From: a virus
Lineage: Duplodnaviria; Caudoviricetes
IMG/VR virus record: IMGVR_UViG_3300027956_000015
Location: 1 to 45,243 of that record
DNA: 45,243 nucleotides
Strand: one strand, 5' to 3'
How positions within the stretch are numbered: the stretch's first letter is position 1; every line of letters starts with the position of its first letter. Positions 683-45,243 of the stretch are shown one piece after another. The notes beneath the pieces were generated by a model. The model was not told where the DNA came from. It saw only the letters and a list, made by a program, of their open reading frames with translations, and ran no database searches. The translations under genes and the position numbers were made by a program.

Positions 683-696
683 ATTAATTTTGAGGA

Positions 697-9214: not shown

Positions 9215-9386
9215 GAGGGCGTTTATTTTTCGCCTTTTCCTCCTCATGAAATTCTCTCATTTTCTGTTTAACAAATTGGGATAGAGTTATCCCACGTTTG
9301 TGTAAAATAGCCATTACATCATTTTTTAAATCAGTAGGTATGTTTGTAACATCTATCCTACTGAACATCTTATTTTGTTTATCCAT
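9198..9386 (-). CDS. Ribbon-helix-helix (Arc/CopG-like) regulator
   Basis: RIDVTNIPTDLKNDVMAILHKRGITLSQFVKQKMREF: strand-helix-G-x-T/S-helix pattern; own TAAATTTG box at 9398-9391. Confidence 0.7.
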   Translation of the reverse strand: MDKQNKMFSRIDVTNIPTDLKNDVMAILHKRGITLSQFVKQKMREFHEEEKAKNKRPPIPRL

Positions 9387-10400: not shown

Positions 10401-10843
10401 TGAGTACAGCTAATCAAGTATTATTAACTGGTAGCCAGTCAATAATTAACTACGATACAACTAAATTGTTTTTGTTTGGTAACAGATACAAAGAAGTTGT
10501 TTATACTAATTCTACAGGTTCGGAAGTTACTTTACCAGTAGGTTTAGTAATGGGTAGAATTGCAGCAACTGAAAAAGTTGTGCCAATTGCTAAAGCCGCA
10601 TCGGATGGCTCACAATTCCCAGTAGGTATTAATGTTAAAGCAGTTACGGTTGCAAATGGTACTACTGTAAATTTAACAATTTGCGTTGCAGGTGATGTTG
10701 AAAAATCATTAGTATTATTTCCTGTAGGAACTGATTTTGATGATGTTGTATCATTAAGAACAATCGAGGATAGAATTATGAGCGATACAGCAGGTATTTT
10801 CTTAATCGAAACAACTCAATTAACTGGATTTGATAATCAATAA
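10400..10843 (+). CDS. Head decoration protein (lambda gpD-like)
   Basis: GLVMGRI…SDGSQFPVGI motif; lies between protease and capsid genes. Confidence 0.85.
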   Translation: MSTANQVLLTGSQSIINYDTTKLFLFGNRYKEVVYTNSTGSEVTLPVGLVMGRIAATEKVVPIAKAASDGSQFPVGINVKAVTVANGTTVNLTICVAGDVEKSLVLFPVGTDFDDVVSLRTIEDRIMSDTAGIFLIETTQLTGFDNQ

Positions 10844-10858
10844 TTTTAAAAAAAGGAT

Positions 10859-11917
10859 ATGAATTTCACACAAGCAAGAGCATTATTCACACAAGCATTA
10901 GTGGATGTGTACAGAGATATTACCCCAGTTAAAGGTTTTGGGCGTTCATTCTTTAGGGATGAATTAAATTTAACCAAATTGGCTAAAATTGAAGTTGAAA
11001 GAGGTTTTGAATTTGTTGCAGTTGATGTTTTAAGAAACAGCGATGGTAACGCAAATCAAGCAAGTCGCTCAACTGAAAAAATTATCGAGCCGCCTTTTTA
11101 TTCCGAGTGGTTACCGTTAAATAGTTTGGATGCGTACGATAGAGTTTTAGCTAATCCTAGCGAAACTTTTGAATTAGCAGCTTTAACACGTGAAGCAGGA
11201 CAAAAAACTGCTAAATTACGTGATAAAATTGAAAGAGCGTACGAATTACAAACATGGCAAGTATTTAAAAACGGTATTGTCAGCTTATCTAAAGTGGCTC
11301 AAATTGATTACAAGCGTAAAGCTTTATCAATGGTTGATTTAGGTGGTTCGGATTACTGGACACAATCAGGATCTAATCCAATTGCAGATTTAGAAAAAGG
11401 TTGTAATTTTTTACGTACAGTAGGTAAATCAAATGGCGGTGTAGTTAATGCAATTATGGGTTCTAAAGCTTTAGATGCGTTTTTAAACAACGCACAAGTT
11501 AAAGCAATTGGCGAATTAAGAAGAATTGATTTAATTACAATTAAATTAGAGCAAAGAAATGCATTAGGCGCATCTTTATACGGTGCAGTTACTGTTGGTG
11601 CATATACTGTAATGATTTGGACTTACCCAGAGTTTTACGATGTAATCGAGGGTGGTGATGTTGTGAGTAAACCTTATGTTGATATTAACGATGTAATCAT
11701 GTTACCAGAAGCACCTAGATTTGTAATGAGTTACAATCAAGTACCGCAATTATTAGGTGATACATACGTACCGCAAACAGGGGCTTATTTATTACGTGAA
11801 GAAATTGACGTACAAAAGAAAGCTCACAAAATGTATGTTGAAAGCGCAGGTATAGCAATACCAACAGCAGTTGACCAGATTTACACAATCAAAGCAACTA
11901 ACGTAACAAATTCATAA
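10859..11917 (+). CDS. Major capsid protein (lambda gpE family)
   Basis: 352 aa; LRDKIERAYE, W…SNPIADL, MYVESAGIAIP; followed by a strong terminator. Confidence 0.9.
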   Translation: MNFTQARALFTQALVDVYRDITPVKGFGRSFFRDELNLTKLAKIEVERGFEFVAVDVLRNSDGNANQASRSTEKIIEPPFYSEWLPLNSLDAYDRVLANPSETFELAALTREAGQKTAKLRDKIERAYELQTWQVFKNGIVSLSKVAQIDYKRKALSMVDLGGSDYWTQSGSNPIADLEKGCNFLRTVGKSNGGVVNAIMGSKALDAFLNNAQVKAIGELRRIDLITIKLEQRNALGASLYGAVTVGAYTVMIWTYPEFYDVIEGGDVVSKPYVDINDVIMLPEAPRFVMSYNQVPQLLGDTYVPQTGAYLLREEIDVQKKAHKMYVESAGIAIPTAVDQIYTIKATNVTNS

Positions 11918-18219: not shown

Positions 18220-18672
18220 ATGAAAAATCAAGTATCATTAATTGGAAGAGTAGGACAGAAACCCGAAAACCGCCAAGCAGGGCAATCAACAGTCTGCAAT
18301 TTTTCTTTAGCAACAACTGAAAAATACAAAACAAAAGAGGGCGAAACTAAAGAAATTACCCAATGGCACAATGTAGAAGCATGGGGCAAACAAGCCGAAA
18401 TTTTAACCCAATACTTAGATAAAGGCAGTTTAGTTAGTATTGATGGCTCGATTGTTTATGAGCAATACGAAAAAGACGGAATTAAAAAAGTATCTACAAA
18501 AATAAGGGTTAAAGAATTTTGTTTTTTAGGTGGTAATAAGCCAAATAATCAAGAGGGGCAAAATCAAAGTGCACCAGTTAATAATGTTAGTGCACCAGTT
18601 AATAATGTTAGTGCACCAGTTAATAATGTTAGTGCACCAGTTGACAATGGGGATGATGATTTGCCTTTTTAA
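18220..18672 (+). CDS. ssb: Single-stranded DNA-binding protein
   Basis: NQVSLIGRVGQKPE, FSLAT, TQWHNVEAWGKQAE, C-terminal DDDLPF. Confidence 0.97.
   Translation: MKNQVSLIGRVGQKPENRQAGQSTVCNFSLATTEKYKTKEGETKEITQWHNVEAWGKQAEILTQYLDKGSLVSIDGSIVYEQYEKDGIKKVSTKIRVKEFCFLGGNKPNNQEGQNQSAPVNNVSAPVNNVSAPVNNVSAPVDNGDDDLPF
18568..18642 (+). repeat. In-frame 21-bp tandem repeat (3 full copies plus 12 bp)
   Basis: AGTGCACCAGTTAATAATGTT x3 + AGTGCACCAGTT; encodes SAPVNNV. Confidence 0.95.
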
Positions 18673-18736
18673 TGTTAACAAATATTAATTATTATATAAA
18701 TTATTATTTTTATTATTGTTAATTGATTTTTAATAT

Positions 18737-18744
18737 TAACTTTG
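18737..18744 (+). promoter_or_regulatory. Promoter -7 box
   Basis: TAACTTTG followed by AAATAATTTAAA leader, resembling the 23931/27765 promoters. Confidence 0.65.
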
Positions 18745-18768
18745 ATGAAATAATTTAAACTAAAGCAC

Positions 18769-20976
18769 ATGGAATATTCGGAATTTTTAAAAACAAAAAC
18801 AAAATCATTTATTGAAAGTGGTTTTACACCTGATAAATTGAATAAAAATTTATTCGATTTTCAACAATACGCAGTTAAAACAGCATTGCAAAAGGGTAGA
18901 TTTGCCCTTTTTTTTGACTGTGGATTGGGTAAAACATTAATGCAGTTAAGTTGGGCAGAGGCTGTTTATAATCACACTAAAAAAAAGGTTTTAATTTTAG
19001 CACCTTTAGCAGTTGTTGAACAATCAAAAGATGAGGCGGTAAAGTTTGGAATATCTTTAAAATGTTTTGATATTACCAACTACGACCAGTTAAAAAATAT
19101 TGAAAATGTAAATCAATATTCAGGCGTTGTATTAGATGAAAGTTCAATATTAAAGGGGCGCGATGGTAAGTTATCCAGTTTAATTATTGATACGTTTAAA
19201 CAAACTCCATATAAATTAGCGTGTACAGCAACACCAAGCCCAAACGACCATATGGAATTGGGGCAACATGTTGATTTTTTAGGTATTGATAGTTACGAAA
19301 ATATGAAGTCTTTATATTTCGTTCAAGATGTTAAACTAAAAACATCAAATAAATGGAGGTTAAAAGAACACGCAAAAAATGATTTTTGGAAGTATGTTTG
19401 TACATGGAGTATGGCGTGTAGCAATCCAAGTGATTTAGGATTTACTCATTGTGGTTATGATTTGCCCGAAATTGAATTTATCGAGCATTTAATTCCAGTT
19501 GAAAATAAAAGCAATAATTTATTTGGCGATGTTGCTGTATCGGCTACTGATTTGCACCAAGATTTAAAACGTTCTTTTGATTTAAGGATTGAAAAAACAA
19601 AAGAGTTAGTTAACAATTCGGATGAACAATGGCTTATTTGGACTTTAAAAAATGATGAAGCCGATATTTTGAACAAAGAAATAAAAAACAGTATAAATGT
19701 ACAAGGTTCGGATAACCCTGAATACAAAGCCAAACATTTAAACGGATTTGCTAAGAATGAATTTCAAAATTTAATCACTAAAACAAGTATTGCAAGTTTT
19801 GGTATGAACTATCAAAACTGTTGTAACATGGTTTTTACATCATACGATTTTAAGTTTGAAGCATTTTATCAAGCTGTTAGGCGTTCATATCGATTTGGGC
19901 AAAAGAATAAAGTAAAAGTTCATATTTTAGTTCCCGAAAGTCAATCAAATGTTAGGGCTACTATTTTGGAAAAACAAAGAAAACACGTAAAAAAATCTAA
20001 AGAAATGGCTAAATATAGTGGGTTACAAGATTACAAAAAAGAAATTGATTTAATAAAAGAAAAAAAACAAATCATTACTGAAGAATATCAAATATACTTA
20101 GACGATACTTTTGTAAAAGTAAAAGATTTAAAAGATGAAAGCGTTGATTATTCCTTATTTTCACCGCCTTTTAAAGATTTATATACTTATTCAGACGACC
20201 CAAGTGATTTAAGTAATGTAGGAAGTGATAAAGAGTTTTATAATCATTTTTCTTATTTAGTTCCTGAATTACTAAGGATAACTAAACCAGGAAGATTATT
20301 ATCCATGCATATAATGCAAGGCACTACATCAATAGGTAAAGATGGATTTTATTCTATTGTTGATTTTAGAGGGGAATTAATACGATTATTTCAATCTTTT
20401 GGTTGGATTTTTCATGCTGAAAAAATGATAAGAAAAAGCCCACAACTTGCAGCAGTAAGGACAAAAAACCATCAATTATTACATAAATCCACAAAAAAAG
20501 ATAGTACAATTTCTAGACCGGGACTAGCCGATTATATTATTACTTTTAGGAAGCCCGGAATAAATAAAGTTCCAGTTGTTAACGACATAAATTTTGATGA
20601 CTGGTGCAAGATAGCCGAGCCATGCGAATTTGATGACAGTATTAATATTGAAGTGTTAAGAAAAATAAGTGACCCATTATGGGTGGACATTGAAGAGGGG
20701 GATACTATAAGTAATTTTAGAAAGGGAAAATCGGAAAAGGATGAAAAACACATGACCCCAACACAATTAAGCGTTATTAGAAATTGTATTTTACTTTGGA
20801 GTAATAAAAACGATGTAGTTTTTGACCCTTTTGGCGGAGTTGGTTCAATAGGCTATCAAGCTTTAACAATGGGTAGAAAATCAATATCTATTGAATTAAA
20901 AGAAAGTTACGTTAAAATAAATGAACAAAATCACAGAAACGCATTAATTAAAAACAGTCAATTAACATTATTTTAA
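18769..20976 (+). CDS. SNF2-like helicase fused to amino (N4/N6) DNA methyltransferase
   Basis: DCGLGKT, LDESS, TATPSPND, QAVRRSYRFGQ; then FSPPF…KHMTP…VFDPFGGVGS (beta-class motif order). Confidence 0.88.
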   Translation: MEYSEFLKTKTKSFIESGFTPDKLNKNLFDFQQYAVKTALQKGRFALFFDCGLGKTLMQLSWAEAVYNHTKKKVLILAPLAVVEQSKDEAVKFGISLKCFDITNYDQLKNIENVNQYSGVVLDESSILKGRDGKLSSLIIDTFKQTPYKLACTATPSPNDHMELGQHVDFLGIDSYENMKSLYFVQDVKLKTSNKWRLKEHAKNDFWKYVCTWSMACSNPSDLGFTHCGYDLPEIEFIEHLIPVENKSNNLFGDVAVSATDLHQDLKRSFDLRIEKTKELVNNSDEQWLIWTLKNDEADILNKEIKNSINVQGSDNPEYKAKHLNGFAKNEFQNLITKTSIASFGMNYQNCCNMVFTSYDFKFEAFYQAVRRSYRFGQKNKVKVHILVPESQSNVRATILEKQRKHVKKSKEMAKYSGLQDYKKEIDLIKEKKQIITEEYQIYLDDTFVKVKDLKDESVDYSLFSPPFKDLYTYSDDPSDLSNVGSDKEFYNHFSYLVPELLRITKPGRLLSMHIMQGTTSIGKDGFYSIVDFRGELIRLFQSFGWIFHAEKMIRKSPQLAAVRTKNHQLLHKSTKKDSTISRPGLADYIITFRKPGINKVPVVNDINFDDWCKIAEPCEFDDSINIEVLRKISDPLWVDIEEGDTISNFRKGKSEKDEKHMTPTQLSVIRNCILLWSNKNDVVFDPFGGVGSIGYQALTMGRKSISIELKESYVKINEQNHRNALIKNSQLTLF

Positions 20977-21209
20977 TGGCTAAAAAATCAAAGAAAAACC
21001 CCACAGACCCGCACCAACAAATGATAATCAACACGTCATTTGTTAGCCCAAAGGGGGCAAAGTGTAGGTTTATGGGGTATATTGAAAATACAAACTGTAA
21101 AAAGTGCCATGTATTGAATTTAGAAACAAACGAAATGGCAATAGTAGATTATGCTTTAATTAAGGATTTATTACCGAAATGGAATGTAAATAAACAGGAG
21201 AATTATTAG
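20976..21209 (+). CDS. Hypothetical protein
   Basis: TAATG-coupled 77-aa ORF. Confidence 0.6.
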   Translation: MAKKSKKNPTDPHQQMIINTSFVSPKGAKCRFMGYIENTNCKKCHVLNLETNEMAIVDYALIKDLLPKWNVNKQENY

Positions 21210-21217
21210 AAAAAAAC

Positions 21218-22405
21218 ATGGAAAAAATAAACGTACTAAGCCTATTTAACGGAATGAATTGCGGGTACTTAGCTTTGCACAATTTAGGAATAAAAGTAAA
21301 TAAATACTATTCTGCTGAAATTGATACACACGCTATTAAAGTAGCACAAACTTTATTTCCTGATACAATCCAATTAGGGGATGTAACTAAATGGAGGGAA
21401 TGGGATATTGAATGGGATAAAATTGATATTTTAATTGGTGGTTCGCCTTGCCAGGGATTTAGTTTTGCAGGTAAACAATTAGCGTTTGACGATCCTAGAA
21501 GTGCTTTGTTTTTTGTATTTGTAGAAATATGGGAACACATAAAAAAGGTAAACCCAAAGGCTTATTTTTTATTGGAAAATGTACGCATGAAAGAGGAACA
21601 CGAAAACGTAATTAGTAATTACATGGATGTAAAACCTATACTTATTAATTCGGCTTTATTATCCGCTCAAAATAGGAATAGATTGTATTGGACAAATTTG
21701 TCCAATGAGCCATACGGTTTATTTGGCTATAATCATTGCACAATTCCACAACCAAAAGATAAAGGAATATTATTAAAGGATGTTTTAGAAAAAGAAGTGG
21801 ATGAAAAGTATTTTTTGAGTGATAAGATGTTGAAGTTTCTGTTGGTAAATTCAACAGGAATAAATGGATGTTTTAAACCAACCGAACCAAAAGATATAAA
21901 TGGAAAATCAAATTGTATGACTTCGCGACAGCATAAAATGGGCAAACAAGATAATTATATTTGCGTTGCAATGCGTGGAAGAAATCCCGAAAATCCTAAA
22001 AGTAGAAAATCGGGCCTACCTACTGAACAACAAATAGAACCGAGAATTGATGGAAAAACTAATTGCTTAACTACGGTGCAAAAAGATAATTTAGTTTACA
22101 CTAAAAACTACCTACAATTTGATGTATCAGGTAAAGGGCATAAATCACAACAAGATAGAGCGTTTTATTTAGATGGTAAACATGGATGTTTAGCTACTGC
22201 TAGGGCAGATACAAAAACAGGAGTATTATTAGAAAATAGAATTAGAAGATTAACACCTAAAGAATGTATGCGTTTACAAACTATTCCGGAATGGGCAATT
22301 GAAAAAATGCTTACTTGTGGAGTAAGTGATACACAATTATACAGAATGCTAGGCAACGGATGGACCGTTGATGTAATTAGTTATATTTTAAGTTTTATAA
22401 AATGA
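21218..22405 (+). CDS. C5-cytosine DNA methyltransferase
   Basis: LSLFNG, GGSPCQGFS, LLENV, QNRNRLYW, RRLTPKECMRLQ, LGNGW. Confidence 0.95.
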   Translation: MEKINVLSLFNGMNCGYLALHNLGIKVNKYYSAEIDTHAIKVAQTLFPDTIQLGDVTKWREWDIEWDKIDILIGGSPCQGFSFAGKQLAFDDPRSALFFVFVEIWEHIKKVNPKAYFLLENVRMKEEHENVISNYMDVKPILINSALLSAQNRNRLYWTNLSNEPYGLFGYNHCTIPQPKDKGILLKDVLEKEVDEKYFLSDKMLKFLLVNSTGINGCFKPTEPKDINGKSNCMTSRQHKMGKQDNYICVAMRGRNPENPKSRKSGLPTEQQIEPRIDGKTNCLTTVQKDNLVYTKNYLQFDVSGKGHKSQQDRAFYLDGKHGCLATARADTKTGVLLENRIRRLTPKECMRLQTIPEWAIEKMLTCGVSDTQLYRMLGNGWTVDVISYILSFIK

Positions 22406-23862: not shown

Positions 23863-23930
23863 AAGTGTTAAAATATCTTAATAAATTAAATTTATTGTAT
23901 AAATTATTGTTTTTATTATTGTTTTTATGG

Positions 23931-23990
23931 AAAAGATTATTATCTTTGAATAAATAATTTAAAAACATATAAGACATGGAAAATTTAAAA
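23931..23990 (+). repeat. Repeated promoter + leader + first five codons, copy 1
   Basis: 60-bp exact match to 27765-27824; contains TATCTTTG (23941-23948) and ATG 23976. Confidence 0.95.
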
Positions 23991-24167
23991 ATTACCTCAA
24001 ACAAATCTGCAAGAACTTTCACTATTAGAAAATTGGAAAATAACAAAGTTTATGCAAAATTTAGGACTTATCAATTTGACAAAGAGGAGTTTAATAATGC
24101 TATATTTTGGACTGAAAACGATTGGAGAAATTGGCTAAAAACAAACGCTTACAAAAGAATAAAATAA
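23976..24167 (+). CDS. Small early cassette protein 1
   Basis: 63 aa, starts MENLK; own promoter and 3' hairpin. Confidence 0.75.
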   Translation: MENLKITSNKSARTFTIRKLENNKVYAKFRTYQFDKEEFNNAIFWTENDWRNWLKTNAYKRIK

Positions 24168-24348: not shown

Positions 24349-24612
24349 ATGAAAAAAATATTATCCAAAATAATAGCTAAAACAGATAAAGCAGTTTGTT
24401 TAGATGTTGCTTTTTTTCATCCAAATAAAACTATTGCGTATCATAAAATTTGGATACCAAATTACAAAATTTTGTATATCAATCCTGATTTAGTTTTAAC
24501 AGTTATAATTATTGACACAAGTATTTTTGACCATATAAATTCAATGATTTATAAATCTTTGGGTAAGGATATTAATTTTGATAAAGTTGAAAATTATATT
24601 TTTTCGGTATGA
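24349..24612 (+). CDS. Hypothetical protein
   Basis: Start moved to ATG 24349 (MKKILSKIIAKTDKAV…KIWIP), since the upstream extension runs through the leader hairpin. Confidence 0.6.
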   Translation: MKKILSKIIAKTDKAVCLDVAFFHPNKTIAYHKIWIPNYKILYINPDLVLTVIIIDTSIFDHINSMIYKSLGKDINFDKVENYIFSV

Positions 24613-25184
24613 AAAATAATAAATTAAATTTAGGTGTGTTTGATTGTAGCACAGGATTAATAAATATATTATACAATGATACGGTTAATAACATAAGTGT
24701 TCGCAATAGCACAATAAAAGATATGTTGTTAGTGGATAAGCTACAAAAAGAAAATAGTAATGCTGTTGGATTTATACAAAAAACAATATGGGAAGATTAT
24801 GTATGGGGAGGTAAAAGAAATTTTATTGTTTTAATATGTGAAGCTAATAATGATGCTGTTGGTTATGTGCTCATAACTCCTGCAAGAGGTTCGTATAAAT
24901 ACGCTAAAATACAACAAATAGCAGTAAGGAATGATGCTAGAAGATTGCAATACGGAACTGCATTAATAGATGTTTGTAGGCAATTTTGCGAAAAATTCGG
25001 GAGAATAGGTTTTACTTTAAGGTGTAGAGTTGATTTAGATAGTAATAACTTTTGGAAAGCGCTAGGATTTGAAAAATATGATGTTTGGGAAAAAGGTAAA
25101 ATAAATCACGTAGGCTTTAAGGCTAGTAACGATATTAATTTATGGAAGATAGAATTAAATAAAAATATTCCAACACTTTTTTAA
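24609..25184 (+). CDS. GNAT-family acetyltransferase
   Basis: IQQIAVRNDARRLQYGTALI (acetyl-CoA motif A) and SNNFWKALGF. Confidence 0.85.
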   Translation: MKNNKLNLGVFDCSTGLINILYNDTVNNISVRNSTIKDMLLVDKLQKENSNAVGFIQKTIWEDYVWGGKRNFIVLICEANNDAVGYVLITPARGSYKYAKIQQIAVRNDARRLQYGTALIDVCRQFCEKFGRIGFTLRCRVDLDSNNFWKALGFEKYDVWEKGKINHVGFKASNDINLWKIELNKNIPTLF

Positions 25185-25191
25185 ATTTGTA

Positions 25192-26085
25192 ATGAAAAAT
25201 ATTTATTTTAATTATTATAATTCCGACATCAAACAAGTTAAACCTATGGGTTTAGTTTCTTTGGAAAAATTTATTAATTCTATAAAAAATCCAAAGCCTA
25301 AAATGATTGAAATTTTGGAAAAAATAGAGTTTTACTCTAAAATCAAAGATGAAACTAACAGATCAAAATATAAACAAATGCTTTATTTTTTCACCCCATC
25401 AATTATTTGTGATTATAGAAATTATAAAGGAATTAAACAATTTACAGGACTTGCTACTTTAGATTTCGATAAATTAGAAAGTTACGAATATGCACAAGAA
25501 TTAAAGGAACATTTATTTAATGAATTTGATTTTATTATTTGCGCATGGTTAAGCAGTAGTAAATTAGGGGTTAGATGTTTGGTTCATATTCCGGCCGCTA
25601 GTTCAGTAGATGAATTTAAGCAGTATTACGGTTCATTAATTCAAGATTTTGGGATTTATAACGGTTTTGATACCGCCCCGAAAAATTGCGTTTTACCTCT
25701 TTTTTATTCTAGAGATAGTAATATTTTATTTCGTGAAAATTATAGTTTGTACGATAAAAAATTTATCCCGGAGCCAGTAGCACCGAAAACACAACCTATA
25801 CGGATTTATAAAAATAAGAAAGTTGAAATAATAAAAAAGATGGTCTATACTGCATTATCCAAAGTTAATAATTACGGACACCCACCACTAAGGGCAATTA
25901 GTTACGCGGTTGGGGGGTATGTTGCAAGTGATTATTTAACAATTGATGAAGCTGTTGATATTTTAAATGATGCAATTGATGGTAATAGTTATTTAAGCCA
26001 AAAGGCATCCATTTATAAAACTACTGCCAAAACAATGATTAACAAAGGACAAAGTGAGCCTTTAATTTTAGATTTTAATAATTAA
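25192..26085 (+). CDS. Primase-polymerase-like protein (VirE N-terminal / BT4734-like)
   Basis: YFFTPS…FTGLATLDFD…WLSSSKLGVRCLV; helical PriCT-like C-terminus. Confidence 0.7.
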   Translation: MKNIYFNYYNSDIKQVKPMGLVSLEKFINSIKNPKPKMIEILEKIEFYSKIKDETNRSKYKQMLYFFTPSIICDYRNYKGIKQFTGLATLDFDKLESYEYAQELKEHLFNEFDFIICAWLSSSKLGVRCLVHIPAASSVDEFKQYYGSLIQDFGIYNGFDTAPKNCVLPLFYSRDSNILFRENYSLYDKKFIPEPVAPKTQPIRIYKNKKVEIIKKMVYTALSKVNNYGHPPLRAISYAVGGYVASDYLTIDEAVDILNDAIDGNSYLSQKASIYKTTAKTMINKGQSEPLILDFNN

Positions 26086-26088
26086 TTT

Positions 26089-27708
26089 ATGAAAGAAAAA
26101 TTTTTTAAAAAGGAGGTTTTAGATTTATTAAAGCCATTTCATAATCCAGTTGATTTTTTTAATGAACATTTTGATTTCATCCAAATTTTTGATAGTTCAA
26201 AAGATAGATTTCACGCGATAGATACTCATAATGTGAGTGATAATTTATGCGTAAAAACCAACAATGAAGCTGTAAGGAATGAAAGCTGTTACCAATTGAA
26301 TGATAAAGGGACTGTTAACGTGCTATTCGATTGCCCTAAGATGAATTTAAGCCGAAATACAATTGTAACTAAGTTTGAACTATTTACATTGATTAGATTT
26401 AAAGGATTTGCGCAGGATGCTATGAACTTTGTAATGTATAGGGTAATGAAAAAACAAGTTCCTTATATGCGTGTTGGCTGTGATTATTTTAAGATTTTAA
26501 ATGATGTAAACCGTTATGGGGTTGAGGTTAAAAAAATTACTGGTTGGAAAAAACAAGAGATTACAGATGATCATGGAAAAACAATTTTAAAAGATTTGCC
26601 GAAATTTGATGGATTTACTTTGTACCCTAACAATAAAAACCACAAGGAATTTATCGGAGGTTATTATAATTTATATAATCAATTCCCACACAAAGCAGCG
26701 GACAAAAAAGATGTTACAAAAGAGGATTTTCCAAATATTGCCCGAATGATGACGCATATTTTCGGGGAAAATGAATATAATCCAGATCAAGAATGGCTGG
26801 GATATATTTATTTGCAAATTTTGTATTTATATCCGCGTAATCATTTTTATATTTTGTGTTTGGTATCAACTGAACGCCAAACAGGTAAAACTACTTTTAT
26901 GAATTTCCTGGAGATTATGCTAGGGGGAAATTATATAAGTATTAAACCCGATGATTTAACTAGTGATTTTAATGAGTTTTACGCAATTAAAAATTTAATT
27001 TCAGTAGATGAGGCTGTAATGGAAAAATCAAATGCAGTTGAAAGATTAAAAGCTTTGGTAACTGCAAAAACTCAATCAGTAAACCGTAAACACGTAGCAC
27101 AATATCAATTACCTTTTTACGGAAAAATTATAATGAACTCCAATAAAGAGCATGATTTTATGAAGATTGAACATGATGAGATTAGATTTTGGGTTCGCAA
27201 AGTTCCACCAGTAATAGGAAAAAGGGATGCATTAATTGAAGATAAATTAAAAGATGAAATACCTTTTTTATTAGCGTATTTAGAAACTTTGCCTTTACTT
27301 GATTTAACTAAGGATAGGTTTATTATTGAGCCACATCAAATCATTACAAATCAATTAAAAAAGGTACAAAAAGAGAGCGAAACATGGCTTAAAAAGGAAT
27401 TAGATGAATATTTAACCGATTTAATGATTAGTTGTGGTGGTTCGTTTTTTAATATTACTCCAAAAATTTTAAAAGAAAGGTTTTTCGCTAATAATAATCA
27501 AGTTAATATTTCGTACATAATTAAAGTTTTACGTGATGAATACAAAGCAAATCAAACAAAGGATATTGAAACTTTTTACCCCTTAGATAAGCATTGGGAA
27601 ACTCCGCAGTTAGGTGCAATTAGAGGTAGATATTACACCATAACCGCTAAAATGTTAGGGATTGAGAATGTAGAATTGAAAGATAAGCCAGATGAATTGC
27701 CTTTTTAG
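26089..27708 (+). CDS. Primase-associated SF3-like helicase (D5/DUF5906-like)
   Basis: STERQTGKTTF Walker A, ISVDE Walker B, IMNSN, IRFWV; ends DELPF. Confidence 0.85.
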   Translation: MKEKFFKKEVLDLLKPFHNPVDFFNEHFDFIQIFDSSKDRFHAIDTHNVSDNLCVKTNNEAVRNESCYQLNDKGTVNVLFDCPKMNLSRNTIVTKFELFTLIRFKGFAQDAMNFVMYRVMKKQVPYMRVGCDYFKILNDVNRYGVEVKKITGWKKQEITDDHGKTILKDLPKFDGFTLYPNNKNHKEFIGGYYNLYNQFPHKAADKKDVTKEDFPNIARMMTHIFGENEYNPDQEWLGYIYLQILYLYPRNHFYILCLVSTERQTGKTTFMNFLEIMLGGNYISIKPDDLTSDFNEFYAIKNLISVDEAVMEKSNAVERLKALVTAKTQSVNRKHVAQYQLPFYGKIIMNSNKEHDFMKIEHDEIRFWVRKVPPVIGKRDALIEDKLKDEIPFLLAYLETLPLLDLTKDRFIIEPHQIITNQLKKVQKESETWLKKELDEYLTDLMISCGGSFFNITPKILKERFFANNNQVNISYIIKVLRDEYKANQTKDIETFYPLDKHWETPQLGAIRGRYYTITAKMLGIENVELKDKPDELPF

Positions 27709-27764
27709 ATGTTAATATATGTTAATGAATATAAATATTATTATATTTCTTATTGTAAATATGA

Positions 27765-27824
27765 AAAAGATTATTATCTTTGAATAAATAATTTAAAAAC
27801 ATATAAGACATGGAAAATTTAAAA
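27765..27824 (+). repeat. Repeated promoter + leader + first five codons, copy 2
   Basis: Exact match to 23931-23990. Confidence 0.95.
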
Positions 27825-28046
27825 TTTATAACTGGAAAAACTTATTTTGAAAAATTTATCGGTGATGCTGATTTAAAAGTTGAATGGTTATGTATTAGCA
27901 GAACTGATAAAACAGTTAAGTTTTTAAATAAACAACGTGATGAAATTATTAAAAGGAAAATTAATGAATATCAAGGTACTGAGTATATAAGATATGGTAA
28001 TTATTCAATGAGTTCATCAATTTACGCAGATAGTTTGAAAAAATAA
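27810..28046 (+). CDS. Small early cassette protein 2
   Basis: 78 aa, MENLKFITGKTY…ISRTDKTVKF. Confidence 0.75.
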   Translation: MENLKFITGKTYFEKFIGDADLKVEWLCISRTDKTVKFLNKQRDEIIKRKINEYQGTEYIRYGNYSMSSSIYADSLKK

Positions 28047-28055
28047 TTAACAAAT

Positions 28056-28079
28056 GGGGCTTAACCGCCCCTAAATTTT
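28056..28079 (+). repeat. Repeated stem-loop, copy 2
   Basis: Identical to 24177-24200. Confidence 0.92.
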
Positions 28080-28086
28080 AAATCCC

Positions 28087-28296
28087 ATGAAAAAATTAAT
28101 TTATATCGTATTCCTCCCCCTCCTATCCTTTGCCCCGCCCAACAAGGTCGAAATAAAGCAAGAGTTTGATTATTCCGAACACATAAGGCAAAAATTAAAC
28201 TGCATTTTGGAAATTGATGATGGCTCGAATTATTGGGATGCAAAAAATAAGATTGAAAGTAAAGAATTATTAATTATTAAATATTTGAAAAGATGA
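28087..28296 (+). CDS. Small protein with signal peptide / membrane anchor
   Basis: MKKLIYIVFLPLLSFA N-terminus. Confidence 0.6.
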   Translation: MKKLIYIVFLPLLSFAPPNKVEIKQEFDYSEHIRQKLNCILEIDDGSNYWDAKNKIESKELLIIKYLKR

Positions 28297-28607
28297 TACA
28301 AATTAGGTTAGATTTAGGAATTGATGCACGTAGAATGATGCAACAAGTACAATTAGAAAACAAACATTTAGAGGAAAAAATTTCAAAAGGAATTGAATTG
28401 GCTTTAAATGATTTAGCTGAGGGCGATAATTTTATTGAACACGTTAGGGAGCAAACAAAATTAGAATTAGCTAATATTGTAAATAGGGCAATTATGAGTT
28501 TTGATGTTAGACAAGCTGTAACTAAAGCTATTAACGAAAAAATGGCTAAAAAAATAGAGGAATACGCAGAACAAATTTCGGAACAAATGATTAAAAAGTT
28601 AATTTAA
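28293..28607 (+). CDS. Hypothetical helical protein (array unit 1)
   Basis: Start and stop codons both lie inside junction repeats. Confidence 0.75.
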   Translation: MIQIRLDLGIDARRMMQQVQLENKHLEEKISKGIELALNDLAEGDNFIEHVREQTKLELANIVNRAIMSFDVRQAVTKAINEKMAKKIEEYAEQISEQMIKKLI

Positions 28608-28626
28608 TTATTAAATATTTAGAGAG

Positions 28627-28881
28627 ATGATAGAGTATTACAACAACGAAAAAAAACCAACACCACTTTATGCAGGGAGTAGTTTTAGTGAGGATGTCTT
28701 AATTTTTACAGAAACTAAAAATATTTATAAAGGTTATTATTGCTTTGACAGTAAAGAATGGTTTTATTACGTTGAAAATGGACATGAAGCTTTTGAGTTA
28801 TTTAACGTTAATTTTGTTTGGTTTTACATACCTTACTTATCACTAGATATTAATTTTGAACATGGAGGTTTTTTTGTATAA
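28627..28881 (+). CDS. Hypothetical protein, DUF551-like (array unit 2)
   Basis: EKKP…SEDVLIF…GYY…W…WFYIP pattern; bounded by repeats. Confidence 0.65.
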   Translation: MIEYYNNEKKPTPLYAGSSFSEDVLIFTETKNIYKGYYCFDSKEWFYYVENGHEAFELFNVNFVWFYIPYLSLDINFEHGGFFV

Positions 28882-28900
28882 TTATTAAATATTTGAAAAG

Positions 28901-29044
28901 ATGATAGGAAATTTAATATTATGGCTTAAAGAAATAATAAAACAAGAATTTTTTTGCGTACATAGGTATGAAAATATAAACCGCAAAGATTTACAAGGTG
29001 GAAGTTTTTTACAATGTAATAAATGTGGTAAAATTATTAATTAA
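28901..29044 (+). CDS. 47-aa Cys/His Zn-ribbon-like protein (array unit 3; not in ORF track)
   Basis: MIGNLILWLKEIIKQEFFCVHRYENINRKDLQGGSFLQCNKCGKIIN; CxH…CxxC; exactly fills the gap between two repeats. Confidence 0.75.
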   Translation: MIGNLILWLKEIIKQEFFCVHRYENINRKDLQGGSFLQCNKCGKIIN

Positions 29045-29056
29045 ATATTTAGAGAG

Positions 29057-29386
29057 ATGAAAATAAAAGACTTACCACAGCCATACAGAGAAATGGCTTT
29101 GATTGAACAGGAAGCACAAGGGAATAAGAGGAATGAGGAATTAAAATTAATTGCAGATATTGAAGATGGTAATTTTTGCTGGGAAGACAGTTTGTGTGGC
29201 GATGAGTTTTGGATATATGTGGATGATGAAAACTACCCCGAAATAACCCCCGAAATAAAAGCAAAGTTTCCGAGTGTTTTTAAGGATGAAATTGAAGAAT
29301 GCAAATGTAAGGTAAATCGAATGATAGTAAGGCATGAAGATAAAGATTGGTGTAATATCTGCGATAAACTTGTAAAGGCAAACTAA
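29057..29386 (+). CDS. Hypothetical protein (array unit 4)
   Basis: MKIKDLPQPYREMAL…FCWEDS…FW; C-terminal CxC…CxxC. Confidence 0.7.
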   Translation: MKIKDLPQPYREMALIEQEAQGNKRNEELKLIADIEDGNFCWEDSLCGDEFWIYVDDENYPEITPEIKAKFPSVFKDEIEECKCKVNRMIVRHEDKDWCNICDKLVKAN

Positions 29387-29435
29387 CTACTAACACCTTT
29401 ATTAACACAATTATAAACCTTAAAAAATAGAAAAA

Positions 29436-29825
29436 ATGAAAACACCACATTTAGATGAAAAAATAAACCTATTAACAGGGGTTGAGCTTAGCGAATATGG
29501 CAAAAGTTTATTAACCGAATGCAAAGCTATAAAACAACTAATCGAAAACACCCCCATTGTTTCAACACCCGAAAAACCTGTTTGGGTGTTGGATGAAACT
29601 GGTGATAAGCGCATATTGTTGGCTGATTTAGGCAGTAGAGTTTTAAACAGCAGATTTATATTGGTAGGTTTTAACTATTTCAAAGAATACATGAATGGAG
29701 AAGAATTTGACTATTATTTTTCGGATTTTATCACCCCCTACACCCCAAAAGTAAACATTGAGGTAACGGAAGATGAAGCTATCAAAGTTGAGGAATTTTT
29801 AAAAACACTAAGAAATGAAAAATAA
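29436..29825 (+). CDS. Hypothetical protein
   Basis: 129-aa ORF within a tightly packed operon. Confidence 0.65.
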   Translation: MKTPHLDEKINLLTGVELSEYGKSLLTECKAIKQLIENTPIVSTPEKPVWVLDETGDKRILLADLGSRVLNSRFILVGFNYFKEYMNGEEFDYYFSDFITPYTPKVNIEVTEDEAIKVEEFLKTLRNEK

Positions 29826-30033
29826 AAAAGATTGCTACTCTTGTAAATTTAGAGAAAAAATAATAGGAGATGCACATTCAAAATGCAATAATGAATGGAA
29901 TAAAGAAGATTTTAAAGGAAAAACAAAGAAAATAACACCAACTTGGAACCAATGGTCTGTTGGTTTTCCAAATAATTTCGACCCTCATTGGTTTAAAAAC
30001 TGTAAAAAGCATCAAGAAAATGAAACTAACTAA
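29815..30033 (+). CDS. Small Cys-containing hypothetical protein
   Basis: CYSC…HSKC…FPNNFDPHW…C. Confidence 0.65.
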   Translation: MKNKKDCYSCKFREKIIGDAHSKCNNEWNKEDFKGKTKKITPTWNQWSVGFPNNFDPHWFKNCKKHQENETN

Positions 30034-30373
30034 AACAGAACAGGACAACATAACGCAACTAAGCGCGATTTGTGCAACTCAAACAAGTATGTTAAGCGGT
30101 TGTAAATCTATTATTATAGCGATGAACACGCACCAGTTAAAGCAAATGTATAGATATGATACAGCTAGTCCAGCCAATAAAAAAGTAGTGGATAAAAAGA
30201 TTAATGAAGCTGTTAAAAATCTTAAACTTACTTTTGATTTGGTGATTAAAATCAACACCCGAATTGAAAACTCAATGCGCGATACTTTGGGGGATGAGGT
30301 TGTGGATGCTTTGATTGATGAAATATCTTTAGCTATGGATAAAGTTGAACTTGATAAATATTTGAAAAAATAA
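30020..30373 (+). CDS. Hypothetical helical protein
   Basis: Start moved to ATG 30020 (MKLTKTEQ). Confidence 0.6.
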   Translation: MKLTKTEQDNITQLSAICATQTSMLSGCKSIIIAMNTHQLKQMYRYDTASPANKKVVDKKINEAVKNLKLTFDLVIKINTRIENSMRDTLGDEVVDALIDEISLAMDKVELDKYLKK

Positions 30374-30378
30374 ATAAA

Positions 30379-31125
30379 ATGAAAGATAAAAAAGAAACAA
30401 TAGCAGTTTGGTTTAGTTGTGGAGTTGCATCGGCAATTGCAACACAAAAAACCATAGAGAAATATGGGGAAACTCATAATATACTAGTCGTAAATAACCC
30501 AGTAAAAGAAGAGCACGAAGATAACATAAGATTTAAAAATGATGTTTCTAAATGGTTAAATATAAATATTATTGAAGCCAAATCTAAAGAGTTTCCAAAC
30601 GCTAGTATTATTGATGTTTTTGAAAAACGAAAATATATTAGCGGTGTTGCTGGTGCTCCATGCACTAAATATTTAAAAAAACAAGCCAGATATGAGTTTG
30701 AAAGTGAAAATAATATTGACTTTCATGTTTTAGGCTTTACTTTAGAAGAAAAAACAAGATACGAGAGGTTTATTAAGTTTGAACGAGAAAACACTATCGG
30801 TATTTTAATTGATGAAAAGTTAACTAAATTTGACTGTTTTGATATTTTACATAAAGCTGGAATACAAAGACCTAAAATTTACGATTTAGGTTTTCCAAAT
30901 GCAAACTGTATAGGTTGTGTTAAAAGCCAAAGTCCTACTTATTGGAATTTAGTTAGACAAAAATTTCCAGATGTTTTTAACCAAAGAGCGGAACAAAGTA
31001 GAAGAATTGGAGTAAAATTAGTTAAATACAAAGGAGAACGTATTTTTTTAGATGAACTTCCTTTAAATGCGAAAGGGGGAAAAATAAAATCTTGGGAGTG
31101 TGGTATTTTTTGTGATACCGAATAA
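30379..31125 (+). CDS. PAPS-reductase-like adenine nucleotide alpha-hydrolase family protein
   Basis: VWFSCGVASA PP-loop variant, APCTKYLK, NANCIGCVK, terminal ECGIFC. Confidence 0.75.
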   Translation: MKDKKETIAVWFSCGVASAIATQKTIEKYGETHNILVVNNPVKEEHEDNIRFKNDVSKWLNINIIEAKSKEFPNASIIDVFEKRKYISGVAGAPCTKYLKKQARYEFESENNIDFHVLGFTLEEKTRYERFIKFERENTIGILIDEKLTKFDCFDILHKAGIQRPKIYDLGFPNANCIGCVKSQSPTYWNLVRQKFPDVFNQRAEQSRRIGVKLVKYKGERIFLDELPLNAKGGKIKSWECGIFCDTE

Positions 31126-31137
31126 ATATTTGAAGCG

Positions 31138-31329
31138 ATGAAAGAACAATACTACAAAATCTACGACCAGCGCGGACGGTTAGCCTTAGTAACACCAACA
31201 CAAATAAGAGTTAACGAATGGTTAAGGGAACAAGGATTTATAACGGAAGATATAAATGTTGCATCGATACCAGTTGATGCCTCTAGGTGGGTGCCGAATG
31301 GGTGGAGAGTTACAAAAGTTAAAATTTAA
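31138..31329 (+). CDS. Hypothetical protein
   Basis: 63-aa ORF after a degenerate junction repeat. Confidence 0.6.
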   Translation: MKEQYYKIYDQRGRLALVTPTQIRVNEWLREQGFITEDINVASIPVDASRWVPNGWRVTKVKI

Positions 31330-31333
31330 TATT

Positions 31334-31573
31334 ATGGAGGAAAAACAACAAATTTATGTCACAATGGGTTGGGATGGTATGCCAATTACAACTAAGGGCG
31401 ATGGTTATATTTTACCTCGAAAAGCCGAAATGATAATCAATAAAAAATATTACCCAAAGGGGGAATTAATGGAATGGCCGGTTGACCCTGATACGAGCGA
31501 AAAATTACCAATAGAGCCAATGAAGATAAAGCCAACTTTTTTTCATAAAATATCAAAATTTTTTAAGAAATGA
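31334..31573 (+). CDS. Hypothetical protein
   Basis: Start moved to ATG 31334. Confidence 0.55.
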   Translation: MEEKQQIYVTMGWDGMPITTKGDGYILPRKAEMIINKKYYPKGELMEWPVDPDTSEKLPIEPMKIKPTFFHKISKFFKK

Positions 31574-31875
31574 AAATCTACATTATAAAACACAAGGGCG
31601 CTAATACTTTTGGGAATTTTTGCTCATTTTTTACAAAGAAAAAAGATGCTAAACTTTGTTTAAGCCATTCAGTTGAATTCCCTAAAAACTACGAAATAGT
31701 ACCTTTGGAAATATCAAAACCTAAATACGCAAAATGTATCAGGACTTTATCCCCTCAATTATTGCAAATAGGTAAAAAATACAAAATCCTAGCGGAACAT
31801 GACGACACTATTTGTATCATTGATGAGGCAGATAATTTATCCACTTTTAATAAATGTTATTTTGAGATAAAATAA
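31570..31875 (+). CDS. Hypothetical protein with C-terminal SH3-like segment
   Basis: AKCI…LQIGKKYKIL…IIDE…CYFE; ATGA overlap. Confidence 0.55.
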   Translation: MKIYIIKHKGANTFGNFCSFFTKKKDAKLCLSHSVEFPKNYEIVPLEISKPKYAKCIRTLSPQLLQIGKKYKILAEHDDTICIIDEADNLSTFNKCYFEIK

Positions 31876-31879
31876 AATT

Positions 31880-32155
31880 ATGAAAAATACATATTCAATA
31901 GAGAATTTAGATTTAGATAATTTAAATTGCGAAGTTAAAGCAGTTGTAACTGATGAAATTAATCAAGAAGTAAATGTTTATTTTATGGATTGTGATTTTA
32001 ATTTTAACACAAAATATAACAACGGTAAACCCGAATGCATTATTACAAATTTTGATTTGTCTATTGAAAGCGAAATTATTAAAATGAAGCATTTGGATCA
32101 AAAGGAAATAAAAAGTTTATTGATTAACGAAATAAATAATAATTTAAATGAATAA
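31880..32155 (+). CDS. Hypothetical acidic protein
   Basis: 91-aa ORF in operon. Confidence 0.55.
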   Translation: MKNTYSIENLDLDNLNCEVKAVVTDEINQEVNVYFMDCDFNFNTKYNNGKPECIITNFDLSIESEIIKMKHLDQKEIKSLLINEINNNLNE

Positions 32156-32468
32156 TTATAAAATCCACCCATATTATTATCCAGGATTAGATTATAAGGA
32201 TTTTAAATCAATTAATGAGATTGTAACACATATTTGTTTTAAATTGAAGATTGATGTTAAAGATTTTATATCATCCAACAGAAAGGATATTTTAGTGTAT
32301 TCTAGGATAATTTTTGCAAACCTTTGTAAAAAAAATGGATTTACACATGTTCAAATCGGTAATTTTATCAATCGGGACCATTCAACAATCACTCATTACA
32401 TTAAAGAATTTGAAAAAATTGAATACAATCCAAAGCTAAAAAAGTTCATGCAGTTGGTATTGAACTAG
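32148..32468 (+). CDS. Stand-alone DnaA domain IV (Bac_DnaA_C / TrpR-like HTH) protein
   Basis: SSNRK…YSRIIFANL…THVQIGNFINRDHSTITHYIK matches the DnaA C-terminal signature IG…RDHST; no AAA+ domain. Confidence 0.8.
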   Translation: MNNYKIHPYYYPGLDYKDFKSINEIVTHICFKLKIDVKDFISSNRKDILVYSRIIFANLCKKNGFTHVQIGNFINRDHSTITHYIKEFEKIEYNPKLKKFMQLVLN

Positions 32469-32494
32469 ATTTTTTACTAAATAAAAGTTAAATT

Positions 32495-32526
32495 AAGCCC
32501 TAAAATTAAGTTTTTAGGGCTTTTTT
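32495..32526 (+). terminator. Intrinsic terminator ending the early operon
   Basis: AAGCCCTAAAA…TTTTAGGGCTT-TTTT. Confidence 0.85.
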
Positions 32527-32529
32527 GTG

Positions 32530-32964
32530 CTTACTGCAAACACTTAAACATTTATAAATCAGTATTTTAACCCAATTTTGCAAACACTGTAAACACTCTG
32601 TAAACAGTGTTTACGCGCTTAACTGTTTATATTTCAGTAAGTTAAAGCCACTGCAAACACTATTCACTATTTTAGCCAACTTTATCGTACAACTTTTTCG
32701 GGATAAAAGGTTCGCAAAAAACTTTGCCATTTTTCAAAAAGTGTTTACGGAAACGTTTTAATACATTGATAATCAACTTGTAAACGGTGTAAACACTATG
32801 GAAAGAGTGTTTGCAGAGTGTTTACAGAGTTATCCACATTTATATATTATTTATATATATATTTATATATAATATATTAATATATAGTAAGTTATACAAG
32901 CAGTACCAATGTTGATAACTCTGTAAACACTCCATAAATTAGTGTTTACAGTGTTTGCAGTAAG
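32530..32964. other. Putative replication origin (iterons, DnaA boxes, AT-rich unwinding element)
   Basis: 10 exact and 4 near-exact TGYAAACACT copies in both orientations; TTATCCACA at 32830-32838; inverted TTATCAACA at 32910-32918; pure-AT run 32839-32886. Confidence 0.8.
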
Positions 32965-33158: not shown

Positions 33159-33536
33159 TTAACTATTCCAATTCGTACCGTATAGATATGCCATAATACT
33201 ATTCACTATTTCATCTATATTCTCATCCCCATTGAACAGCATATACACCATGCCATTAGCCTTTACTTTCTGCTCAAATACTATCTGCATATCCGATTGA
33301 TCCTCTTTACTGTTTTTCTTCAATTCAACAAACATTATTTTCCCACCACCTAAGATATGTAAATCACTTACCCCAGCACGTAAACCGATTAACTGCATTA
33401 TCTTTGCTGTAATTTTATCCCTATATCCACCGTTTGGAACATGATACACAAACAAATCTTTATACTGTAACTCATACTTTACAAGGCTTGTAAACAATCT
33501 GTTTTGGAATTCGTTTTCGCTATTATATTTTTTCAT
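33159..33536 (-). CDS. VRR-NUC family nuclease
   Basis: SENEFQ…YHVPNGG…GLRAGVSDL…FVELK…QSDMQIVF. Confidence 0.92.
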   Translation of the reverse strand: MKKYNSENEFQNRLFTSLVKYELQYKDLFVYHVPNGGYRDKITAKIMQLIGLRAGVSDLHILGGGKIMFVELKKNSKEDQSDMQIVFEQKVKANGMVYMLFNGDENIDEIVNSIMAYLYGTNWNS

Positions 33537-44131: not shown

Positions 44132-44558
44132 AGTTGATTTAAGCGTTTACGAAACGCAATTAAATGCTTTAAATGAGCATTACATAAGCAATTTAGTGGA
44201 GGGTAGTACTACTACCAATTTCGCTAATCCTGTTATTTTTATGGGTTTTGGCTACGTGCTAAAGAGCGAATATACTTTGCCCTTTTTCCCTGATTATTTG
44301 GAAATTGTGGATAGCATACCGCAATGGCACGAAGAGGATAAAGCAATACAAATAGTGCAAAATAAAAGCGGTGTTGTATGGGGCGCAATGAATGAGCCAC
44401 AGATAGCAATGGGGTTATCTATGCACCGTATTAATACAAATATGCAAACCTATGAAGAGGGCGAAAAATTATATTTTTATGCGAATACTATTATACCCGA
44501 GCATCAAGCTATATTTAATGCTTATCCACAATTAGAAATTATTATTAATGAAAAGTAA
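44118..44558 (+). CDS. Hypothetical tail-module protein (possible fibre chaperone)
   Basis: 146 aa; overlaps the lectin-like gene. Confidence 0.6.
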   Translation: MQYIKVDLSVYETQLNALNEHYISNLVEGSTTTNFANPVIFMGFGYVLKSEYTLPFFPDYLEIVDSIPQWHEEDKAIQIVQNKSGVVWGAMNEPQIAMGLSMHRINTNMQTYEEGEKLYFYANTIIPEHQAIFNAYPQLEIIINEK

Positions 44559-44679
44559 ATCTAACTTAGAGCGCGTTGCATTTATAGTTTTAATGGGTAT
44601 TTTTATGTATTTATTTGCTACAAGTTGCACAACCTCAAGAATTAAATATAAACCGCATTATCCGTATTATTATGAATAA
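44548..44679 (+). CDS. Small putative lipoprotein, second allele
   Basis: MKSKSNLERVAFIVLMGIFMYLFATSCTTSRIKYKPHYPYYYE. Confidence 0.75.
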   Translation: MKSKSNLERVAFIVLMGIFMYLFATSCTTSRIKYKPHYPYYYE

Positions 44680-45082
44680 AGAGGAATTAATACAAAATAC
44701 TTTAGAATACGCTAAATTAATTAAACTTAACAGCGTATTAATGGACTGTTTAAAGGAAGCTTTATATTCTAATGAATGGGATTTTACAAATCCTGAGCAT
44801 TACGATGGATGCACTGGTGTTGATGAATTACATTACAACGCATACCCCCCTGATTGTTTAGTGCATGATTTTCACTGGAAAACAGGAAGAGGGGGAATAG
44901 TTGCCGATAGTATTTTTAGGGATATTATGAGAGCGATGGGGCGTTCAAATAGAATTATTAAAAAAAGATATAAAGGCGTTCGGATTGGTTGGATGTTTTG
45001 GTATAAATGGAAACATAAGCTAAATGGCAACGTTCAAGAATTAACAAACGCAATGAAAGTTTATAAAATATTAAATTTTTAG
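44672..45082 (+). CDS. DUF1353/phospholipase A2-like protein, second allele
   Basis: Near-identical to 272-682; start moved to ATG 44672. Confidence 0.55.
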   Translation: MNKEELIQNTLEYAKLIKLNSVLMDCLKEALYSNEWDFTNPEHYDGCTGVDELHYNAYPPDCLVHDFHWKTGRGGIVADSIFRDIMRAMGRSNRIIKKRYKGVRIGWMFWYKWKHKLNGNVQELTNAMKVYKILNF

Positions 45083-45096
45083 ATTAATTTTGAGGA

Positions 45097-45243
45097 ATGA
45101 TAAATATACCAACAACCCAACAATTATTTAATTCGATTAAATTAAACATCGAAGCAGAATTAAATATACAAATTCCTACTTTTGGAAAAACTTTTCTTTT
45201 TGCCTTTTGTTCAGTTTTAGCAGGAACTTTAAAATTATTTTAC
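45097..45243 (+). CDS. Baseplate J-like, 5' fragment (truncated by window end)
   Basis: Repeats 697-843. Confidence 0.85.
   Translation, partial: MINIPTTQQLFNSIKLNIEAELNIQIPTFGKTFLFAFCSVLAGTLKLFY

Follow-up and report, generated by a model that had tools for sequence, protein, structure and literature searches.

SaPI origins carry 6–12 short iterons that lie just 3′ of rep and are opposed around an AT centre; a C-terminal winged helix recognises these iterons, and no separate loader is needed (PMC9371898). The iteron plasmids P1, F, RK2 and pSC101 combine iterons with DnaA boxes, an AT-rich unwinding element and an IHF site (PMC4980987), and arrays of DnaA boxes have been reported for phage T5 (10.1101/866236). 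A stand-alone homologue of DnaA domain IV is known from Caulobacter crescentus as GafY or HdaB (CCNA_01111; PMC9632790, PMC11150451). HdaB was first proposed to be an inhibitor of DnaA inactivation via HdaA (10.1101/712307); GafY was later shown to turn on the promoters of a gene transfer agent together with IHF and sigma 70 (PMC9632790, PMC11150451). In the literature that we searched, with most subscription papers outside the search, no study placed a stand-alone domain IV encoded by a phage at an SF3 origin.

Here we analysed one virus record of 45,243 bp (the window, that is, the whole stretch of DNA), in which a gene for a stand-alone DnaA domain IV (mini-DnaA) lies beside a predicted iteron origin. 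As in SaPI, opposed short iterons surround a central AT-rich core; as in SaPI1, a separate primase gene lies upstream of the helicase gene; and the modelled helicase has the same SF3 fold, including the C-terminal domain, as SaPI Rep/PriRep (7ola, 7pds) and NrS-1 (6k9c). Unlike SaPI, however, this is a lytic-type tailed phage genome and not a satellite, and its origin, 4.8 kb away from the helicase gene, has two DnaA-type boxes flanking the core. The iteron plasmids differ in using a winged-helix Rep together with host DnaA and DnaB on mostly direct iterons, and P1, F, RK2 and pSC101 carry no gene for a helicase or for a fragment of DnaA. With GafY the phage protein shares the character of a small stand-alone domain IV homologue tied to a phage-derived system, a likeness drawn from published descriptions. 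GafY binds a non-box element with IHF, recruits sigma 70 and partners with GafZ, whereas the phage mini-DnaA retains most of the presumed box-reading residues.

Results

The ends of the window (1–843 and 44401–45243) overlap by 843 bp at 94.5% identity, so that the record probably represents a complete circular genome of some 44.4 kb. The imperfect identity fits a circular genome in a mixed-strain assembly, and features at the ends are counted twice: perfect boxes at 122 and 44522 are one coding site doubled by the overlap and were rejected as sites. The genome encodes lambda-like head and contractile-tail proteins (Pfam, PHROG), and its nearest cultured-phage terminases are those of Flavobacterium and Cellulophaga phages at 36% identity, which suggests a Bacteroidota host, an assignment that stops short of the genus level. 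Two genes appear to be on the minus strand in an otherwise plus-strand genome. One (9198–9386, 62 aa) has a faint RelB-like match (E 0.054); the other is an endonuclease/resolvase-like gene (33159–33536; PHROG 93, PHROG 5702) that lies beyond the origin, ahead of the terminase genes, and is oriented towards the origin, and most relatives differ in this orientation. An SNF2 helicase-DNA methylase fusion, a C5 methylase, a GNAT acetyltransferase and a PAPS-reductase-like gene (18769–22405, 24609–25184 and 30379–31125) form a possible DNA-modification or anti-restriction set, judged from sequence.

The sequence-only reading had named a phage helicase at 26089 after citing P4 alpha-type primase-helicases. 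This ORF (26089–27708, plus strand) does encode an SF3 helicase of the DUF5906 family (Pfam, model and structural alignment), predicted to be the iteron reader and initiator, but it has no primase domain; a primase-like protein with a BT4734-like N domain is encoded by a separate gene directly upstream (25192–26085, plus strand; Pfam, PHROG). The helicase model (pLDDT 84) aligned with the helicase region of NrS-1 with a Z of 24.5 and an rmsd of 4.3 (359 aligned, residues 111–519) and with SaPI5 PriRep with a Z of 18.2 and an rmsd of 6.3 (374 aligned, residues 14–504), at 11–17% identity to the solved proteins. The C-terminal domain was included in the alignments with NrS-1 and the SaPI Reps and, from the whole-protein structural alignment and secondary structure, is predicted to be a winged helix. 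No match to this helicase was found among cultured phages. A winged-helix, DnaB-loading Rep was not seen among the proteins scanned, which included part of the small ORFs, and the phage has its own helicase.

The predicted replication origin occupies 32533–32964. Ten exact copies of the iteron TGYAAACAC (six plus, four minus) lie in 32535–32959, with none elsewhere in the 45,243 bp, and they stand in both orientations on both sides of the core, in a layout as in the relatives described below. The first iteron begins 65–67 bp past the mini-DnaA stop codon (about 60 bp in the sequence-only reading), and a terminator-like hairpin, found on both strands (32495–32522; 11 pairs and a T tail), lies in this gap. 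The left arm of a 25-bp inverted repeat (32816–32840, plus strand) consists of an iteron followed by the perfect box TTATCCACA (32830–32838), and the right arm (32908–32932, minus strand) places TTATCAACA (32910–32918, minus strand) beside an iteron. The arms match at 24 of 25 positions, both boxes sit exactly between the innermost iterons and the AT core, and the two boxes and the repeat are all where the sequence-only reading had put them. The pure AT core that it had given as 48 bp is also present, with a full run of 49 bp (32838–32886) of which 48 follow the box. This is the longest A/T run in the window, it begins the least stable 50-bp duplex of the genome (−39.0 against a mean of −59.3, sd 4.0 kcal/mol), and by composition and duplex stability it is the predicted unwinding element. 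A strict match to the IHF consensus WATCAAnnnnTTR (PMC10380432) lies at 32759–32771 on the minus strand, about 60 bp from the left box, and a relaxed second match at 32557–32569; a strict match in this single origin has a 5% probability by chance. DnaA boxes, iterons, an AT-rich element and an IHF site are all present in this one origin.

A scan with a 54-sequence alignment of the helicase gave 177 confirmed viral loci, of which the best 80 were kept. Among these best 80 of 177, an AT-core/iteron element was found within 1.2 kb of the helicase stop codon in 69 of the 73 loci with at least 500 bp of room, that is, directly downstream and not 4.8 kb away as here. The detector used looks for an AT core with opposed short repeats and recovers the origins of the window and of Flavobacterium phage mumin6-1; it requires an A/T run of 16 or more and is thus blind in GC-rich phages. 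The relatives with an origin are 37–45% identical in helicase and include many near-duplicates, leaving 35 distinct origins. The iteron words vary from one helicase clade to another; among the clades whose origin is visible, the nearest (L007, L010, L011 and L012) has a TGTAAA(C) core too (SH-aLRT 99, in a quick tree with 45 rows). The repeat region is likely a phage replication origin of the SaPI-type iteron kind, and the SF3 helicase, as modelled, is likely its iteron reader. It had first been proposed that either the helicase or the mini-DnaA binds the iterons; the family-wide link between helicase and origin and the helicase C-terminal domain speak for the helicase, and the mini-DnaA half of that proposal found no support. 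A recurring IHF-consensus site was observed in the origins of DUF5906 helicases (for example L013, L027, L028 and L084, as well as the window), with a strict match in 14 of the 35 distinct related origins against 2.2 expected, a count that relatedness inflates.

We then considered what reads the two boxes. One answer would be host DnaA, perhaps with IHF, assisting the helicase as in the iteron plasmids, with the mini-DnaA acting elsewhere, for example on host boxes. Boxes, iterons and an unwinding element are the standard layout of those plasmids (PMC4980987), and the IHF-consensus site lies close to the left box. TTATCAACA forms intergenic clusters in one Myroides genome, and GTTATCAACA is above control in three of five Bacteroidota genomes, but not in the other two, Flavobacterium among them, so that the host box preference gave a mixed outcome. 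Moreover, the origin here has two boxes only, facing each other across the core, and TTATCMACA was absent within 500 bp 3′ of the helicase gene in all 72 relatives examined (from the best 80 of 177 loci), which suggests that a replicon of this type does not need host DnaA. A role for host DnaA at these boxes is thus, in our view, unlikely. Prophage-type loci of the helicase in bacterial genomes (45 loci) likewise had no box in the 39 with room and no mini-DnaA nearby. Copies of TTATCCACA near the helicases of L056, L061 and L075 were rejected as origin boxes because they lie inside the helicase gene. In the Myroides genome, at least six TGTTGATAA words lie in one intergenic cluster (L269:1500–1900), not beside dnaA, and this is possibly a DnaA-box cluster.

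The mini-DnaA gene (32148–32468, plus strand) encodes 106 aa that match Bac_DnaA_C (PF08299) over residues 22–86 with 41.2 bits (cut-off 31.5) and no other domain. This is the single PF08299 match in the whole record and, with a frame of 106 aa, the protein has neither the AAA+ domain III nor domain I. Its predicted model (pLDDT 88) has the helix-turn-helix fold with a basic loop as in 1J1V, and its top structure matches (TM about 0.7, rmsd 1.8–2.2) are 3pvp and 1j1v, the domain IV–DNA complexes of M. tuberculosis and E. coli DnaA, which bears out the first description of the protein as essentially DnaA domain IV. In the alignment to 1J1V the equivalents of E. coli R399 (R45 of mini-DnaA), D433, H434, T436 and H439 are retained, the last four of which we take to be box-reading residues. 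The equivalent of P423 is V and that of T435 is S; most host DnaAs from the likely phylum also differ at these two positions, and the T435 position is A in four of five Bacteroidota host DnaAs. A role of R399 in box reading is described in 10.1101/712307, and its equivalent is kept in 84 of 89 aligned domain IV homologues. With most of the presumed box-reading residues retained, binding of both DnaA-type boxes by mini-DnaA is likely. No direct relatives of mini-DnaA were found in viral contigs by protein patterns, a word-indexed search gave its own cluster only, and a tree of 35 domain IV sequences gave no resolution.

The mini-DnaA might instead be a GafY-like transcription regulator unrelated to the origin, in which case the boxes would be a chance variant that was copied a single time when the innermost iteron was duplicated in inverted orientation. 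Transcription is indeed where the one characterised stand-alone domain IV acts (PMC9632790, PMC11150451). The mini-DnaA gene closes the early block right before the packaging genes, and runs of small genes surround most of the viral homologues (downstream gap below 200 bp for 63 of 74). Both boxes are halves of one 25-bp repeat, and in L402, a relative with a terminase 71% identical, the iteron GGTTGCCACA resembles a DnaA box. Set against this, GafY/HdaB has no R399 equivalent (10.1101/712307), which the phage protein and most aligned homologues do have. Allowing one mismatch, we found no box ahead of the terminase genes or in the leader of the accessory block. When 32523–32964 was shuffled 20,000 times with dinucleotides preserved, at least one perfect box arose in just 0.46% (p about 0.005) and at least two TTATCMACA in 0.025%, figures that overstate the case because the two boxes belong to a single inverted repeat, one in each half, and the coincidence was itself the reason for choosing the locus. 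We therefore hold a purely transcriptional role to be doubtful. As for a GafZ-like partner, no neighbour has a matching Pfam or PHROG family, and there is no gene between mini-DnaA and the terminator.

To see how the gene is distributed, we searched for stand-alone domain IV genes across phages. A full HMMER search gave 513 domain IV clusters (E up to 0.001), and the best 150 of these are 75–373 aa long and include no full-length DnaA; tblastn gave 26 records from cultured phages, in several of which the protein already bore a DnaA helix-turn-helix annotation. The same domain, at 30–41% identity, occurs in Olleya phage Harreka_1 (gp24), Flavobacterium phage mumin6-1 (gp028) and Pelagibacter phage HTVC204P (gp23), in small early genes as here, but none of these adjoins an origin, and the GGTAACC iteron element of mumin6-1 lies 7.3 kb from the domain IV gene and has no box. 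A motif scan gave 121 viral mini-DnaA loci, all profile-confirmed, of about 1,800 estimated. Of 80 taken with flanks, one duplicate and one short locus were dropped to leave 78, and 63 of these had 1 kb on both sides. None of the 63 genes had an origin-like element within 1 kb, a count that is weakened because none of these loci held a DUF5906 helicase of this kind and because the detector is blind in GC-rich phages; it also says little about phages with other replicons. Within 600 bp of the 78 genes there were three strict boxes against 2.0 expected. Two side observations concern the domain itself. Phage PJN03 (L005:19986–20606) has, by alignment, a DnaA domain IV-like N terminus fused to another C-terminal domain, which from its motif we presume to be nuclease-like, and some phages have two or three domain IV-like genes (L283, with three in tandem at 9842–11333, L306, L312 and L327).

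Among the helicase relatives, mini-DnaA was found in four of the best 80 of 177 records, which are mostly fragments (two of the four being near-identical), and in two of 12 complete relatives (terminal repeats or CheckV); a more sensitive profile applied to 26 long helicase records gave the same three distinct carriers. Stand-alone domain IV genes are thus common and optional in phages. The distance between gene and origin is 3.9 kb in G079, 5.5 kb in G069, 7.3 kb in mumin6-1 and 9.4 kb in G104, and in G027 the gene lies 5 kb upstream of the helicase, with the origin lost at the contig end. These placements contradict the coupling of gene and origin that had been proposed, since in four phages the gene stands independently, 3.9–9.4 kb away. 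A conserved adjacency likewise fell, the gene being absent in 10 of 12 complete relatives and no box being found at any of the 72 related origins (best 80 of 177 loci). In G027, G069 and G079 the gene is present with no origin box and no genome-wide box excess (the origin of G027 being cut). Together with the near-expected number of boxes around viral mini-DnaA genes, this indicates that most mini-DnaAs may read something else.

We also searched for origin boxes elsewhere. The exact iteron-box fusion was found in no viral stretch. For inverted box pairs 55–85 bp apart, 120 of about 250 loci were examined and yielded one AT-rich spacer (L176), rejected as not being a similar origin. For a box beside TATATATATA (a TATA run), 120 of about 180 loci were examined; the detector flagged 11, and among these G104 alone has a clear iteron origin and L479 a possible one (with no mini-DnaA in a record 63% complete). 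G104 is an unrelated, GC-rich phage of 59.5 kb with a different primase-helicase (G104:C1:31307 and 40401; L436, L533). One perfect box stands at the core of its iteron origin, where the scan selected for it, and a second precedes its domain IV gene by 330 bp; in this single case there are three perfect boxes against 0.35 expected. G104 offers a good second case for testing.

G104 bears on a stronger role for the protein, that of a lineage-specific and required specificity factor that would sit on the boxes at either edge of the core and bring in or place the helicase. G104 provides one independent pairing of origin box and mini-DnaA, and in the window three rare features coincide: the gene is 65 bp away from the first iteron, each innermost iteron is fused to a box, and the origin has moved 4.8 kb from the helicase gene. 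Yet the helicase retains its C-terminal domain and the origin has 10 exact iterons, the block that carries the gene is mosaic, and no second genome with the layout of the window was found among the 80 helicase, 18 terminase, 121 mini-DnaA and 240 box-pattern loci examined. We consider a required factor of this sort highly improbable.

The neighbourhood offers a simple account of why gene and origin adjoin. An AT-rich, promoter-like element of about 110 bp occurs in three copies (18655–18790, 23866–23994 and 27710–27828; 74–82% alike), each of which precedes a gene block, and it contains a TAnnTTTG-type word, a motif of Bacteroidota. The copy at 27710 begins at the helicase stop codon and opens a run of small accessory genes between helicase and origin (27709–32468, plus strand), which terminates with the mini-DnaA gene and the hairpin at 32495–32522. 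Contigs from four other runs, compared over 30900–32800 and covering to about 32560, reveal a mosaic block in which joints pass over single ORFs, and in one of these contigs ORF 31880 is joined to the mini-DnaA gene. In one run most of the mini-DnaA gene had no cover, an absence that carries no weight. In the two closest helicase relatives (73–74%), small genes and not an origin occupy the 3.0 and 5.5 kb sequenced after the helicase; there is no mini-DnaA in this sequence, and both records end short of their origin. L402 has an iteron/AT element in the corresponding place, ahead of its nuclease and small terminase genes, with a different flanking gene and no box. A mini-DnaA profile gave no match in 18 terminase relatives, a search run without a positive control and repeated with controls for four of them. 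Our reading is that an accessory operon came to lie between helicase gene and origin, which left its closing gene, that of the mini-DnaA, next to the origin.

Discussion

The reading that we prefer, with a probability of roughly one half, is that of a helicase-driven origin at which mini-DnaA is an optional accessory modulator that likely binds both boxes and only tunes origin use. By analogy with SaPI Rep, helicase hexamers would load through their C-terminal domain onto the opposed iterons flanking the core, and the loaded helicase would melt the AT core without DnaA. The separate primase would then prime, and host IHF may bend the origin. Because it has no AAA+ domain, mini-DnaA could not melt DNA itself; bound to the boxes, it would adjust helicase loading or exclude host DnaA, and it may also compete for host boxes. 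A more elaborate arrangement would be a rebuilt two-protein initiator, in which a captured DnaA domain clamps the boxes at the core edges as a matchmaker or switch for a self-loading SF3 helicase and also competes for host boxes. Papillomavirus E2 with E1 offers an analogy; we regard this arrangement as distinctly unlikely.

The bipartite initiation system proposed in the sequence-only reading therefore survives in part: an origin, a helicase as its probable reader and a mini-DnaA that may occupy the boxes remain, and a conserved coupled system does not. The statement that no characterised example has this layout also needs qualifying, since iteron plasmids share it and GafY/HdaB is a stand-alone domain IV that has been characterised, although not at an origin. 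A lineage-specific coupling of gene and origin may exist, and among the relatives found none is close enough to share the exact origin. What is unusual is that the boxes are above chance, that most of the presumed box-reading residues are kept and that one unrelated phage pairs an origin box with a mini-DnaA. With an origin of known type and an optional gene, the locus is a good test case and not a new system.

Although phages very commonly carry stand-alone domain IV genes, in the literature searched, with most subscription papers outside the search, we found no functional study of any phage-encoded one, including those of Harreka_1, mumin6-1 and HTVC204P. In the locus described here, the mini-DnaA gene adjoins a compact and probably autonomous origin that contains two candidate targets for the protein. 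At stake for phage mini-DnaAs is whether they read boxes and tune replication, or have a GafY-like role in transcription.
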